Origin: Candidatus Caribbeanibacter nitroreducens | Lineage (GTDB): Bacteria; Gemmatimonadota; Gemmatimonadetes; Palauibacterales; Palauibacteraceae | Direction of reading: 5' to 3' | Length of the DNA stretch: 64,000 nt | Assembly: GCA_947581645.1 (NCBI GenBank) | Contig: CANPVF010000123.1 | Location: 12,838 to 76,837, forward strand | In this document: one piece after another, positions 39,297 to 64,000 of the stretch | Numbering within the stretch: position 1 is the first letter of the stretch | Layout of the letters: each line of letters opens with the position of its first letter | Notes under the pieces: generated by a model | The model's database searches: none | The model's input: the letters and a program-made list of their open reading frames with translations, nothing else | What the model was told of the DNA's origin: nothing | Translations under genes and position numbers: made by a program

Positions 39297-39380
39297 GCCG
39301 GGGTGGCGGAACTGGCATACGCAGCGGACTTAAAATCCGCCGGCCTTCGGGCCATGTGGGTTCAAATCCCGCCCCCGGCA
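39297..39380 (+). tRNA. tRNA-Leu (anticodon TAA), class II with long variable arm
   Basis: Manual cloverleaf: acceptor GCCGGGG/CCCCGGC, anticodon stem GCGGA/TCCGC with loop CTTAAAA (anticodon UAA), variable-arm hairpin GGCC-TTCG-GGCC, T-arm GTGGG-TTCAAAT-CCCGC, discriminator A. No encoded CCA. Confidence 0.8.
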
Positions 39381-57350: not shown

Positions 57351-58316
57351 TCAGGCCTCCTGCTCGGAGCGGGTCAGCCCCAGGTCCAGCTCGTCGGCCA
57401 CGAGCGATCGGCCGCCGGCCTTCACCGTCAGCACGGGGGGAACGCTCCGGCGGATGACGCCCTCGGCCACCGACCCCAGCAGGGCCCGCTTCACGCCCGT
57501 GAGTCCGTGAGTGCCGACCACCACCAGGTCGGCTCCGTTCTCCGCGGCGAAGTCGGCGATGCCGGGCGCCGGCCGATCCTCGACCACGTGGACGGAGGCG
57601 TGGATTCCCGCCTCCTCGATGCGACCCAGCGCCTTCTCCAGCCGCTCGGTGACGCGCTCCTTGATCTCGGCGGCCATCTGCTCGCCGGTGAGGGGGGCGG
57701 GATAGTAGAAGTCCGGGTACGTGATCTCCTCGATGACGTGCAGGAGCTGCAGGTCGGCGTCGAACTCGCGGGCGAGCCCGACGGCGTGCTGCAGCGCCAG
57801 CTCCGAGTGCTTCGAGAAGTCCACCGGCGCCAGGATCGTCCCGAAGCCCGCCACCGTCGCCGGCTCCTCCTGCTCACGGGCGGTGAGCACGGGGCAGGGG
57901 ACGCGGCGCACGACTTCCTCGGTGACGCTGCCCAGCATCAGGTGCCGCAGCCCCCGTCGCCCGTGGGTGCCCATGACCACGAGGTCGATGTCCTTCTCGT
58001 CGACGTACTCCATCACGACCGGCGGCGCGGAGATGCCCCTGCGCTGCTCCCGCACCACGGTGAGCGGCTCGGGGGCGTGCTCCTCGACGATGTCCTTCAT
58101 CCGGGCGTCCGCCCGCTGCTCCAGCTCCGTCGTCAGGCTCTCCATCTCCGGGAAGTGGTGGCTCGGATTGGCCGGGTCCGACGCGTGCAGCACGTTGGCA
58201 TGGAGAAGATGGAGCTCGGCGTCGTGCGCCTCGGCCAGCGCCACCGCGTAGGGGAGGGCCTGACGGGAGGACTCCGAGAAGTCCGTCGGGAAGAGAATCC
58301 GGTCGATGTTCAGCAT
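57351..58316 (-). CDS. tandem universal stress protein (UspA) domain protein
   Basis: Two UspA domains, each with 'VVMGTHGRRGLRHLMLGSV' / 'VVVGTHGLTGVKRALLGSV' ATP-binding motifs. ATG at 58316 with GAGGA RBS. Confidence 0.8.
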   Translation of the reverse strand: MLNIDRILFPTDFSESSRQALPYAVALAEAHDAELHLLHANVLHASDPANPSHHFPEMESLTTELEQRADARMKDIVEEHAPEPLTVVREQRRGISAPPVVMEYVDEKDIDLVVMGTHGRRGLRHLMLGSVTEEVVRRVPCPVLTAREQEEPATVAGFGTILAPVDFSKHSELALQHAVGLAREFDADLQLLHVIEEITYPDFYYPAPLTGEQMAAEIKERVTERLEKALGRIEEAGIHASVHVVEDRPAPGIADFAAENGADLVVVGTHGLTGVKRALLGSVAEGVIRRSVPPVLTVKAGGRSLVADELDLGLTRSEQEA

Positions 58317-58502
58317 GGATGGTCCTCGGCTCACGGTTTCCGTTCACACGTCGCGAAGCGTCCGAATCGGCCGGTCCGCACCGGCCGCGCGGAACGTCAC
58401 GGCCAACCTACCGCGGGTCGCGGAGGGAGCGAAGTCGGGAGATCTCGCACGCCGGGGTGGAGAAAGGGAGACCGTCCCCGTGGGGAAACCCCCGCCCGCC
58501 GA

Positions 58503-59159
58503 TCACACCTCCTTCAGGAGCCCGACCTTCAGGGCGAACCGCACCAGCTCGGAGCGGTGGTTCAGCTCCAGCTTCTTCATGATCCGTGACCGGTAGGTGT
58601 CCACGGTCTTGGGGGAGATGAAGAGCTTCTCGCCGATCTCCCGGGAGCTGAAGCCCTCGGCCGTGAGCGCCAGGACCTCCTGCTCGCGGGAGCTGAGCTC
58701 GTGGAGGCGGCTCTGCTCGCCTCCCTCCTCGGCAGCCTTGTACTCCTTCAGGAGGAGCTTGGTGGCCTGCGGCGGGAGGTAGACCTCGCCCTTGGCCACG
58801 ACGTTGATGGCCTCCACCAGATCACGGTCGGCGCTGGTCTTGGTCAGGTACCCGCTGGCGCCCGCCTCCACCACGGGGACCAGGTACTCCTCCTCGGCGT
58901 GCACCGTGAGCACGAGGACGTCCACGTCCAGGTCCAGCGCGGAGATGCGGCGCGTGGCCTCCAGGCCGTCGGCCTCCGGCATGGAGAGGTCCATGATCAC
59001 GATGTCCGGATCCTCGGTCCTGGCCATATCCACGGCCTCGTCGCCGTCGGAGGCCTCGCCCACGATTGCGATGTTGCTCTCGGCATCCAGGAGGGCCCTG
59101 AGCCCCGCCCGAAACATGGCGTGGTCGTCGGCCAGAAGTACCTGGATCGGCCTGCCCAT
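58503..59159 (-). CDS. NarL/FixJ-family response regulator (REC + LuxR-type HTH)
   Basis: Receiver 'VLLADDH...DIVIMDLSMP' with phospho-Asp. C-terminal 'LSSREQEVLALTAEGFSSREIGEKLFISPKTVDTYRSRIMKKL' HTH. Confidence 0.85.
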   Translation of the reverse strand: MGRPIQVLLADDHAMFRAGLRALLDAESNIAIVGEASDGDEAVDMARTEDPDIVIMDLSMPEADGLEATRRISALDLDVDVLVLTVHAEEEYLVPVVEAGASGYLTKTSADRDLVEAINVVAKGEVYLPPQATKLLLKEYKAAEEGGEQSRLHELSSREQEVLALTAEGFSSREIGEKLFISPKTVDTYRSRIMKKLELNHRSELVRFALKVGLLKEV

Positions 59160-59406: not shown

Positions 59407-60474
59407 ATGACCCCGGCGCGTCACGGTTGGATCGGCACCCTCCTGGGCGTGCCGCTCGGCTACAAGCTGGTGGCGGCCAGCGTCGCGGTAGCCGCGGCCG
59501 TGGCGGCGGTGACGCTTGTGGCGGTGCGGCACGTCCCGGCCGTGCAGGCGGCGCCGGACGGCCTCGTGATCGCCGGTGCATTCGCCGTCGGCGGCGTGCT
59601 CCTGGCCGTGCTGCACGGAGCGCTGGTGCGGCTGGCACTGCGTCCGATACGGGAGCTCGAGCGGGTCGCCGGGCGGGTCGAGGCGGGCGACTTCTCGGCT
59701 CGCGCGGAGCCCACGCTCTTCGCCGATCGGCAGCTGGAGCAGATCGCGGGGCAGTTCAACGACGCGCTGGACGGGATCACGGAGCTCCGGGCACGGCTGC
59801 GCGAGGTGGCGCGGCGCAGCGTGGAGCGGCGCGAGGAGGAGCGCCGGGCCCTGGCCGGTCACCTGCAGGAGGACGTGGCCCAGCGGATCGCCGCCTGTCT
59901 CCTCAAGCTCAAGGTGGCCCGCTCACCCGCCGACGACGAGGAGCGGAACGCCCTCCTCGACGAGCTCCGCGAGGAGGCGGCGTCGGTGCTGGAGAGCGTG
60001 CGTGGCCTCGCCCGGGATCTCCACCCGCCGGAGCTCGGGGACATCGGCGTGGGGCGGGCGATCCAGGCCTTCGCGCGCTCCTTCGCCGAGTCCACCGGGA
60101 TCGACGTGGAGGTGGAGCGGGACCCGGTGAACGGCGTCCTCGACGAGGAGGGGCGCCTGGCCCTCTATCGTATCGCCCAGGACCTGCTGATGAACGTGGT
60201 CCAGCGGACGCAGTGCCGCGACGTCGAGATGCGGCTCCGGACCAGCCCGGATCGGGTGACTCTGGAGCTGGCGGGACGCATGGAGGGACCGGCGGTGTCG
60301 GCGCGCTGGGCACGCTGGCCGGACTCGCCGGAGCTCACGGAGATCCGTGAGCGGGCGGTCTACGTCGGCGGCCGCGTGGTGGCCGACGGGGCGTCCGGCC
60401 CGGGGCGGATCCGGGTCGAGCTGCCGGCGGCCGTGCGCCAGGACGGTGCGGCTCGAGCGGCAGCAGTCGGATGA
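59407..60474 (+). CDS. sensor histidine kinase (two TM, HAMP, HisKA_3-type dimerisation, HATPase)
   Basis: Two TM helices, HAMP-like 'LRPIRELERVAGRVEAGDF', H-box 'LAGHLQEDVAQRIAA', and a C-terminal ATPase region. Divergent from the NarL-type regulator. Confidence 0.7.
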   Translation: MTPARHGWIGTLLGVPLGYKLVAASVAVAAAVAAVTLVAVRHVPAVQAAPDGLVIAGAFAVGGVLLAVLHGALVRLALRPIRELERVAGRVEAGDFSARAEPTLFADRQLEQIAGQFNDALDGITELRARLREVARRSVERREEERRALAGHLQEDVAQRIAACLLKLKVARSPADDEERNALLDELREEAASVLESVRGLARDLHPPELGDIGVGRAIQAFARSFAESTGIDVEVERDPVNGVLDEEGRLALYRIAQDLLMNVVQRTQCRDVEMRLRTSPDRVTLELAGRMEGPAVSARWARWPDSPELTEIRERAVYVGGRVVADGASGPGRIRVELPAAVRQDGAARAAAVG

Positions 60475-62059: not shown

Positions 62060-62998
62060 ATGACGCTGTCGAGACGGGACCTGCTCAGGCTCGGACTGGG
62101 CGCCGGAGCCTTCCTCGCCGTCGGCGGCGGGGCGGGACGGGCGTCGGGGCGCGGGCTCCGGGAGATCCAGGAGGCGGACCTGATCCACCACACCATCCCC
62201 TCGAGCGGAGAGCGGATCCCGGCCATCGGGATCGGGATGCGGAACTACCGCACCGAGTGGATCGAGGAGGAGGGGCGGTATCGGCGCACGATCGAGGCCT
62301 TCCACGAGATGGGCGGCCGCGTGCTGGACACGGCCCCGTCCTACGGCGACTCGGAGAGCCACCTGGGCCGCATCCTGGAGGAGCTCGGGGTCCGGGAGGA
62401 CATGTTCATCGCCACCAAGGTGGACCGCCGGGGACGGGAGGCCGGGGTCGAGCGCATGGAGGCCTCGCTGGACCGGATCGGCACCGACTACGTGGACCTG
62501 ATGCAGGTCCACAACCTCCGGGGGTGGGAGACGCAGCTGGAGACCCTGCGGGACTGGAAGGAGGAGGGCCGGGTCCGGTACCTGGGGATCACCACCTCCA
62601 GCGACCGACAGTACGACCAGATGGCCCGAATCATGGAGCGGGAGGAGCTCGACTTCATCCAGGTCGACTACTCGCTGGGCGACAGGAGCGCCGCGGACCG
62701 GATCCTGCCCATGGCCCGGGAGCGGGAGATCGCCACCCTGATCAACCTGCCGTTCGGCCGCGGCGAGCTGTTCGAGGCGGTGGAGGGGGAGCCCCTGCCC
62801 GACTGGGCCGGAGAGATCGACGCCGACACCTGGGCGCAGGTCTTCCTCAAGTACGTGATCTCACACCCGGCCGTCACGGTGGCCATCCCCGGGACCACGG
62901 AGCCGGGGCACGCCCGGGACAACGTGGGCGCCATGATGGGGCGGCTCCCGGACCCGCCCATGCGGCGGAAGATCGAGGAGACCTACGACGCCCTCTAG
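62060..62998 (+). CDS. aldo/keto reductase with Tat signal peptide
   Basis: 'MTLSRRDLLRLGLGAGA' twin-arginine signal. AKR motifs 'LDTAPSYGDSE', 'YVDLMQVHN', 'YLGITTS'. Confidence 0.8.
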   Translation: MTLSRRDLLRLGLGAGAFLAVGGGAGRASGRGLREIQEADLIHHTIPSSGERIPAIGIGMRNYRTEWIEEEGRYRRTIEAFHEMGGRVLDTAPSYGDSESHLGRILEELGVREDMFIATKVDRRGREAGVERMEASLDRIGTDYVDLMQVHNLRGWETQLETLRDWKEEGRVRYLGITTSSDRQYDQMARIMEREELDFIQVDYSLGDRSAADRILPMAREREIATLINLPFGRGELFEAVEGEPLPDWAGEIDADTWAQVFLKYVISHPAVTVAIPGTTEPGHARDNVGAMMGRLPDPPMRRKIEETYDAL

Positions 62999-63280
62999 CC
63001 CTCGGCCGAGAGGTTGTGCACCAGGTGCCGGGCGAAGTCGTCCAGGGGCATCGTCTTGATCCGCGTGTTGCGCTTCTCCTGGTACGGTTCCAGGCAGTCG
63101 TCGTGGACGAAGGTCACCTCCCGGTAGGCGGCGGTTTCCTTCCGCTCCCAGCCGGCGCGGCCGTCGGAGCCGGGCTCGATGGTCCGGTCGCAGTACTCGC
63201 ACTTCACCAGGGGGCAGAAGCCGTCCGGTCCGCCGCGCTTGACGGTGGCCTTCTTCAGCTGTCGAACGACCAGGGGCATG
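62995..63280 (-). CDS. hypothetical small Cys-containing protein (95 aa)
   Basis: Strong RBS GAAGGAGGA before ATG at 63280. Contains 'FCPLVKCEYCDRT...HDDC' (possible Zn-ribbon-like). The track ORF's longer N-extension is Arg/Ser/Thr-rich and probably spurious. Confidence 0.4.
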
Positions 63281-63346
63281 GCGATCCTCCTTCGGAGGTG
63301 TTCGGGTCGCGGGAGATCGGGTAGGGGTGAGCGGAGACGTGGCCGT

Positions 63347-63907
63347 CTACGGCCTGGAACGGGGATAGGGACGAACGACGCTGGCCTGGGGGCCCTCCTC
63401 TCCGGACTCCTCGGCGAACGCCACCGGCGTGCCCTTCTCCAGCTGCTCGAAATCGCCCTCTCGAACGTCGTTCTCGTGGAAGTAGATCTCCCGCCCGTCC
63501 TCGCTCTCGATGAACCCGTAGCCCTCGCCCAGGAAGAGATCCCGGACCCGGCCCACGCTGTCCACGTCCGGGTGCTTGACGTCACCGCGCTGCTTGCGCG
63601 CGTAATCCTCCAGCTGCCGCTCCATGGCGTGGAAGGCCGAGGTGAGAGCCACGGACAGCTCCTCCCGGGAGGGATCGTCGCCCGGGTCCTGGCTCACCAC
63701 GAGCTCCTTCCCCGGCACCCGTGCGTCGATGCGCACGTGGTACTGGTTGCCGGTCTCGTGTCGCTTGTGCGGCATCTCCACCATGACCCGGCAGGTGATG
63801 ATGGGCTCGTAGAAGTTCTCCAGATTCTCGATCCTCCCGCGGATGTCCCGCTTGAGTTCCTCGGTAGGCTCCAGGTTGCGGAAGCTGATCTCCGGTGGTG
63901 TCTCCAT
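63347..63907 (-). CDS. hpf: ribosome hibernation-promoting factor (S30AE/HPF N-domain) fused to a C-terminal cold-shock domain
   Basis: N-terminal 'ISFRNLEPTEELKRDIRGRIENLENFYEPIITCRVMVE...VRIDARVPGKELVV...SAFHAMERQLEDYARKQRG' matches the HPF/YfiA fold pattern. C-terminal 'GRVRDLFLGEGYGFIESEDGREIYFHENDV...GTPVAFAEESGEEGPQASVV' aligns along the whole length with CspA (RNP1 'GYGFI', RNP2 'IYFHE'). Strong RBS GAGGAGGAA. Confidence 0.75.
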   Translation of the reverse strand: METPPEISFRNLEPTEELKRDIRGRIENLENFYEPIITCRVMVEMPHKRHETGNQYHVRIDARVPGKELVVSQDPGDDPSREELSVALTSAFHAMERQLEDYARKQRGDVKHPDVDSVGRVRDLFLGEGYGFIESEDGREIYFHENDVREGDFEQLEKGTPVAFAEESGEEGPQASVVRPYPRSRP

Positions 63908-64000
63908 CGTATTCCTCCTCGATGTCTCGTCGTCGACGTGCGTGGACGGTGCGGCGGGCTCCGTGGGGAGCGCTCATACGGGGCTCCGGTCCGCCACGAA

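Follow-up and report, generated by a model that had tools for sequence, protein, structure and literature searches.

The Coxiella burnetii protein CBU_0020 was found on the ribosome by cryo-EM and named HPFcold, with structures in the PDB as 9T0Z (the C. burnetii 30S-HPFcold complex) and 9TZE (Stuart et al., Nat Commun 2026, PMC13392368). In these structures, which are of monomeric 70S and 30S complexes, the S30AE domain occupies the tRNA/mRNA cleft of the 30S subunit and blocks the decoding site, and the cold-shock domain (CSD) lies at the mRNA exit, where it is clamped by bS21 and uS7 and wraps the anti-Shine-Dalgarno (anti-SD) 3' end of the 16S rRNA. Y142 stacks on U1534 and F132 on C1535, R123 pseudo-pairs with C1535, and R177 bridges phosphates. 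The beta2-beta3 loop carries an insertion that is present in CBU_0020 and not in the short HPF CBU_0745, and conservation within the HPFcold family is concentrated on the anti-SD-contacting surface (PMC13392368).

Stuart et al. also counted Legionella Lpg1206 (UniProt Q5ZW81) as an HPFcold (PMC13392368). This protein has been studied genetically under the name 'LhpF' (mBio 2026, PMC12977618). It has a conserved HPF N-domain, while its C-terminal domain does not resemble the one found in long HPFs. Lpg1206 is expressed during the stationary phase, influences 100S levels and, together with RaiA, contributes to Legionella starvation survival (PMC12977618). HPF-Csp, HPF-SigE and HPF-CBS chimeras coexist with canonical HPFs, and such chimeras occur at variable loci, sometimes on plasmids (Chan et al., bioRxiv 10.1101/2025.11.04.686544).

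Here we describe an HPF-CSD gene near the end of the window, by which we mean the whole 64-kb stretch of DNA that was analysed. Judged by its sequence, the encoded protein is a member of the published HPFcold class, and its architecture is not new, having been described in publications of 2025-2026. The sequence, the structural model and the analogy with Coxiella make it very likely that the window protein acts as an HPFcold-type hibernation factor in the way described for Coxiella.

A complete gene encoding an S30AE domain and a cold-shock domain

Table 1. Features of the window, given as window positions
Feature	Position	Strand	Remarks
Single tRNA gene	39297..39380	+	sole match from an Rfam scan of the window at gathering threshold
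Sensor-kinase/GerE/double-Usp gene group	59407..60474 and about 57351..59159	+ and -, respectively	
94-aa ORF downstream of HPF-CSD gene	62995..63279	-	ATG 63277-63279; called on three contigs
Shine-Dalgarno of 94-aa ORF, GAAGGAGGA	63285..63293	-	read from sequence
Gene for predicted HPFcold-type hibernation factor, complete	63347..63907	-	ATG start, 186 aa; ORF and Pfam
C-terminal cold-shock domain	63368..63559	-	aa 117-180; five-stranded OB barrel
Inter-domain linker	63560..63586	-	aa 108-116; predicted flexible, conserved start
N-domain of S30AE/HPF-YfiA fold	63587..63907	-	aa 1-107; beta-alpha-beta-beta-beta-alpha
Shine-Dalgarno AGGAGGA of HPF-CSD gene	63913..63919	-	5 nt 5' of ATG; read from sequence

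The 186-aa translation matched both of the Pfam domains that a scan was expected to return, each above its curated cut-off: Ribosomal_S30AE (PF02482) covers aa 6-107 with 49.8 bits (cut-off 23.7; E 5.9e-13), and CSD covers aa 128-179 with 44.7 bits (cut-off 27; E 1.2e-11). This agrees with the original prediction, which had read the first ~110 aa as S30AE/HPF/YfiA and the C-terminal ~65 aa as a CspA-type CSD. The C-terminal part contains the RNP1 motif GYGFI (aa 129-133) and the RNP2 motif IYFHE (aa 141-145), and its aa 119-178 align with residues 4-63 of stand-alone Csp structures. The Ribosom_S30AE_C dimerisation domain (PF16321) had no Pfam match in the protein at E <= 1, so the further proposal that the CSD replaces the dimerisation domain of long HPFs held as well. 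The gene lies on the minus strand, a detail that the original prediction had left out. The strong ribosome-binding site that had been described is the AGGAGGA tract (Table 1), and an SD-like purine tract also precedes the HPF-CSD gene in two relatives, at loci L084 and L088.

Against the NCBIfam equivalogs, TIGR00741 (HPF/YfiA) scored 23.7 bits, below its trusted cut-off of 40.9, and the top match, the CspE equivalog NF049933, scored 32.9 bits for a cut-off of 120. Since all yfiA and Csp equivalog scores fell under their cut-offs, both halves of the protein are, on these profiles, divergent versions of the HPF and Csp families. The N-domain likewise represents a divergent subfamily by sequence comparison; with the window protein as the query, a phmmer search of the PDB returned no canonical HPF/RaiA at E <= 0.01. 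Stand-alone Csps are single domains of ~65-70 aa that score over the equivalog cut-off; the CSD here is fused within a 186-aa protein.

The original prediction had named two outcomes that would undo it, a standard dimerisation domain at the C-terminus or a fusion artefact from a frameshift between two genes. In such an assembly or annotation artefact, an adjacent short HPF gene and csp gene would have been merged through a frameshift or the loss of a stop codon. We ruled this out because the exact 186-aa protein is encoded on three independent contigs (ENA, Logan, JGI), because there are 321 colinear homologous clusters among 5.8 billion proteins, almost all of them combining the two Pfam domains within 180-200 aa, and because colinear relatives are found in at least 590 species-representative genomes searched with one peptide pattern. 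The linker sequence is also conserved and the solved homologue is a single chain, and a fusion artefact is accordingly close to inconceivable. The window protein is identical to MDP2497891.1, annotated as 'HPF/RaiA family ribosome-associated protein' in a Candidatus Palauibacterales (Gemmatimonadota) MAG. There was no compositional anomaly that would signal horizontal transfer: the HPF-CSD gene (GC3 0.89, GC2 0.39) resembles the adjacent genes (GC3 0.91-0.97).

Distribution of HPF-CSD proteins

The taxonomic survey of the S30AE + CSD architecture that had been called for placed it in many phyla. Its hosts among the genomes counted above include Gemmatimonadota, Gammaproteobacteria, Alphaproteobacteria, "Deltaproteobacteria", Binatia, Acidobacteriota, Planctomycetota (Gemmatales, Brocadia), Nitrospirota, Thermodesulfobacteriota and Cyanobacteria. 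The N-terminus is uniform: of 112 aligned sequences, 109 begin at one common column. No phage homologues of the protein were found. Among plasmids and megaplasmids in PLSDB, four carried a full-length HPF-CSD gene (Azospirillum oryzae, Methylocella tundrae twice, and Sinorhizobium fredii). Several other Azospirillum megaplasmids and one Burkholderia plasmid matched the N-domain only (aa 1-111), without the CSD.

Some members of the family are longer. A subgroup of seven (P0061, P0048, P0056, P0058, P0066, P0069 and P0073) measures about 320-326 aa, with a ~135-aa C-terminal extension after the CSD in which a Gly/Pro/Asp-rich spacer precedes a conserved segment that looks helical; no Pfam family matched this extension. 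Another protein, P0006, has a BON domain before the S30AE-CSD pair, which could be a gene-call fusion; its contig is 1.4 kb long.

Predicted structure and comparison with Coxiella HPFcold

An AlphaFold2 (AF2) model of the window protein, built from 60 homologues (pLDDT 82.8), consists of two domains, one with the HPF/RaiA fold and one with the Csp fold, and a flexible linker between them (pLDDT < 50 at aa 110-114). The modelled N-domain, with elements E6-10, H16-29, E38-44, E57-64, E67-73 and H84-106, matched ribosome-bound RaiA/HPF at TMt 0.77-0.87 (Foldseek; 8rd8_D 0.80, 4hei_A 0.87, 4v4g). The modelled CSD matched CspB/CspE/CspA at TMt 0.83-0.87 with an rmsd of 1.7-1.8 A (Foldseek; 1hzb_A, TMt 0.86, 1.8 A), and in the structure-based alignments it was ~30-36% identical to stand-alone Csps. 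A 12-residue insertion in the beta2-beta3 loop (aa 45-56) appears in the model as a long loop between E38-44 and E57-64, and it aligns gap-free with the beta2-beta3 loop of Coxiella HPFcold.

The top PDB match of the window protein was chain 9 of 9t0z (phmmer; E 1.2e-30, query 1-178 versus 6-178), and by BLASTP it was 37% identical to CBU_0020 over 176 aa (E 8e-39). The two proteins share the two-domain layout, a similar length (186 aa in the window, 183 aa in Coxiella), the beta2-beta3 insertion, a conserved RGxVK linker, and F132 and Y142 at identical numbering. The window protein differs in that 5 residues are inserted in its N-domain ahead of helix 2 (aa 77-81) and its linker has one compensated 1-residue indel, the remaining domain and linker lengths being matched. 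Of the residues that contact the anti-SD in Coxiella, F132 and Y142 are kept, whereas R123 is replaced by D123 and R177 by V177. The N-domain is also much more acidic (pI 5.4, versus 8.8 in Coxiella), and the host belongs to the Gemmatimonadota and is free-living or environmental, whereas Coxiella is one of the Gammaproteobacteria.

Which of these residues matter across the family was judged from conservation counts in an alignment of 112 HPF-CSD sequences. Six residues were invariant (G131, Y142, F143, G159, G172 and Q174), and the window protein has all of them, as it does V162, G169, A175 and K111 (111/112 each) and H144 (108/112). Position 132 is F in 79 sequences and in the window protein. 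The start of the linker is similarly constrained (R107 in 102/112, G108 in 92/112, V110 in 90/112, along with K111), and the conserved basic residues of the N-domain, R10, R40, R59, R97, R104 and R107, are present together with K111. Only at position 73 does the window protein depart from a strongly conserved residue: it has Q73, and R stands there in 98 of the 112.

Position 123 is variable family-wide (R in 32, E in 32 and K in 25 of the 112), as is position 177 (T in 73, S in 19). Because both columns vary across the family, R123 and R177 read, in this alignment, as idiosyncrasies of Coxiella and not as family-defining residues.

The whole window protein has a pI of 4.86, compared with a family median of 6.06, and contains 40 D+E to 25 K+R. 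This acidity may be a proteome-wide trait of a marine or hypersaline host and not a functional change.

Relation to other hibernation factors and cold-shock proteins

The window protein has the N-terminal S30AE fold in common with the long HPFs of S. aureus, B. subtilis and L. lactis (PF02482 + PF16321), and by homology it would bind the decoding site as they do. Where a long HPF has the C-terminal dimerisation domain that makes 100S ribosomes, however, the window protein has a CSD. The HPF-SigE and HPF-CBS chimeras follow the same theme, in that the dimerisation domain is swapped for a stress-protein module, and differ in the domain that is fused. Lpg1206 resembles the window protein in its HPFcold membership and HPF N-domain, a likeness taken from the published description.

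The N-domain fold is also shared with E. coli RaiA and short HPF by Foldseek. RaiA uses an unstructured C-tail and not a folded RNA-binding domain. In E. coli, HPF and RMF together cover two sites, whereas HPFcold covers both with a single chain. RMF is an unrelated small helical protein that promotes 100S formation, and it reportedly binds at the anti-SD region, a placement said to come from work by Polikanov et al. in 2012.

With CspA, CspB and CspE the window CSD shares the OB fold, the difference being that it is fused and not free. Its RNP1/RNP2 aromatics are equivalent to CspA F18, F20, F31 and H33; the equivalent of CspA W11 is D123.

Proposed mode of action

By homology with the Coxiella protein, we infer that the window protein binds the ribosome and the anti-SD and serves a corresponding physiological role in its host. 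The S30AE domain would occupy the decoding centre of the 30S subunit, lie across the A/P-site mRNA-tRNA path and block translation. The conserved linker would follow the mRNA path, and the CSD, at the mRNA exit/platform side, would wrap the 16S rRNA's single-stranded anti-SD 3' end, holding it on its aromatic RNP1/RNP2 surface (Y130, F132, Y142 and H144). Such capture would shield the 16S 3' end from RNases and prevent SD pairing, so that idle 70S ribosomes would be kept as protected monomers. One chain would in this way do the HPF/RaiA job at the decoding site and an RMF-like job at the anti-SD.

Strong GGAGG-type SDs on both the HPF-CSD gene and the 94-aa ORF downstream imply that the host anti-SD is the canonical CCUCC; a rough tally of SD usage over the whole window was too noisy, with spurious high-GC3 frames. 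Genes for 16S rRNA, bS21 and canonical HPF were absent from the 64-kb window, as were a second S30AE gene and, by Rfam scan, any rRNA.

The CSD could instead act on mRNA, binding or melting it at the exit channel, for example in the cold, with the S30AE domain serving only to dock the protein on the 30S subunit. The generic nucleic-acid platform of Csps is kept in the CSD (Y130, F132, Y142, H144), its identity to stand-alone Csps is in keeping with such a role, and the base-reading R123 of Coxiella is not kept. In the solved homologue, however, the N-domain fills the mRNA/tRNA path, so that mRNA could not be threaded while the protein is bound, and the ligand of the CSD is the 16S 3' end (PMC13392368). 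Family conservation is moreover centred on the anti-SD-contacting surface (PMC13392368), and the locus gave no indication of cold regulation: the intergenic gap is 66 nt and there is no long cspA-like 5' UTR. We consider an mRNA-chaperone role very unlikely.

A second alternative is that the protein promotes 100S dimers as long HPFs do, despite having no canonical dimerisation domain. In Legionella, the exponential-phase 100S peak was reduced when LhpF was deleted, and a booster strain had a 100S peak in late stationary phase (PMC12977618). The Legionella double mutant still formed 100S (PMC12977618), so another factor drives dimerisation there, the Coxiella structures show monomeric 70S and 30S, and Ribosom_S30AE_C is absent from the window protein; a dimerising role is on balance very improbable. 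The original prediction had offered that, instead of dimerising ribosomes, the CSD perhaps tethers mRNA or 16S 3' ends. Tethering of the 16S 3' end is supported by the Coxiella cryo-EM and the full-length alignment, and the absence of dimerisation is the more tentative part, since Lpg1206 still influences 100S levels.

HPFcold-type storage of monomeric ribosomes thus remains our preferred reading, and the acidity of the protein, the lost R123 and R177 contacts and the Legionella 100S effect are reasons for caution about the mechanism. Genetic work on Lpg1206 ties the family to survival of starvation and to expression in stationary phase.

Genomic context

A Pyr_redox_2 oxidoreductase gene lies upstream of the HPF-CSD gene on the matching strand, with a 66-nt gap. 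The window lineage has it in full, as a gene encoding 423 aa (window about 63974-64000 and past the window end). In the relative L084, a 119-aa ORF (L084:2584-2943), the 3' end of which aligns with the Pyr_redox_2 3' end (L001:9880-9934), is apparently a remnant; in L088 the gene is absent and Kup is directly divergent. Because the upstream gene is truncated in one relative and missing from the other, the HPF-CSD gene probably has its own promoter. Scans around the gene found no sigma-70-like promoter and no inter-gene terminator, which is uninformative for this phylum. The upstream Pyr_redox_2 gene and the AKR gene had no tblastn match at 80 HPF-CSD loci.

Genes of the stress type stand in the wider neighbourhood, namely Usp, OsmC, Kup and MgtC along with two-component systems. 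A HAMP/HisKA_3-type sensor-kinase-like ORF, without a recorded HATPase_c match, has beside it a response regulator of the GerE type and a double-Usp protein of 321 aa. OsmC, Kup and MgtC lie just past the window end (on L001) and form a stress-gene neighbourhood with these kinase and Usp genes.

Genes lying within 4 kb of HPF-CSD at 80 loci in other lineages recurred as follows, in raw counts of loci: CBS-pair proteins at 13, RtcB RNA ligase at 10, Hsp20 at 8, alpha/beta hydrolase at 7, a LonC-like protein at 6 and archease at 4. Examples are L010:1726-3183, L013:3063-3569, L007:3363-3791 and L007:10421-10843, with others among loci L004-L083. RtcB has been reported to religate the 16S 3' end, which is the RNA end gripped by the HPFcold CSD.

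A lineage-restricted ORF downstream

The 94-aa ORF begins 67 nt past the HPF-CSD stop codon on the matching strand. The original prediction had drawn attention to a small ORF here with an equally strong ribosome-binding site; that site is present as the ORF's own GAAGGAGGA, although the upper end of the ORF is 63279 and not 63280. Homologues are few, only 13 clusters among 5.8 billion proteins, which are 71-89% identical except for one at 47%, and no Pfam or NCBIfam family was matched. By its sequence, the ORF is a real, lineage-restricted orphan. Across the family C22, C27, C30, H59 and C62 never vary, which suggests a metal site and makes the product a putative small metal-binding protein. 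The AF2 model was mediocre (pLDDT 67.6), and Foldseek found nothing significant, the best match being MerB at E 0.12 and zinc-ribbon ribosomal proteins all being non-significant.

Within the Palauibacterales-like lineage, the HPF-CSD gene is always followed by this ORF. It adjoins HPF-CSD in L084 and L088, where the factor is 80-96% identical to that in the window, but it was absent by tblastn from 80 other HPF-CSD loci, and its 47%-identity homologue adjoins a CBS protein and an ECF-sigma-like ORF and not HPF-CSD. We therefore rejected the ORF as a family-wide partner of HPF-CSD. Because the pairing is confined to a narrow clade, the co-expression that had been suggested is plausible there, in the form of co-transcription with the HPF-CSD gene, and a general partnership is unsupported.

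A perfect inverted repeat on the mRNA strand, CCTCC-GAA-GGAGG (63286..63298), would lock the SD of the 94-aa ORF into a hairpin of 5 bp; the repeat mimics an anti-SD:SD pair. As a regulatory element this hairpin was rejected, since it is not conserved in L084 and L088.

Two further alternatives, which we regard as very unlikely, are that the acidic HPFcold and the 94-aa Cys3-His-Cys protein form a hibernation module of two proteins specific to this clade, or that the CSD recognises an RNA other than the anti-SD. If the module were real, the putative metal-binding 94-aa protein would make good the absent basic contacts or provide a redox/metal switch.

Implications

The survey of at least 590 species genomes indicates that the HPF-CSD class is very widespread in environmental bacteria. 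So far it has been characterised only in Coxiella and Legionella, and this locus provides a Gemmatimonadota example. The separation of Coxiella contacts that hold family-wide (Y142, F132, H144 and K111) from those that appear idiosyncratic (R123 and R177) should be useful for generalising the mechanism.
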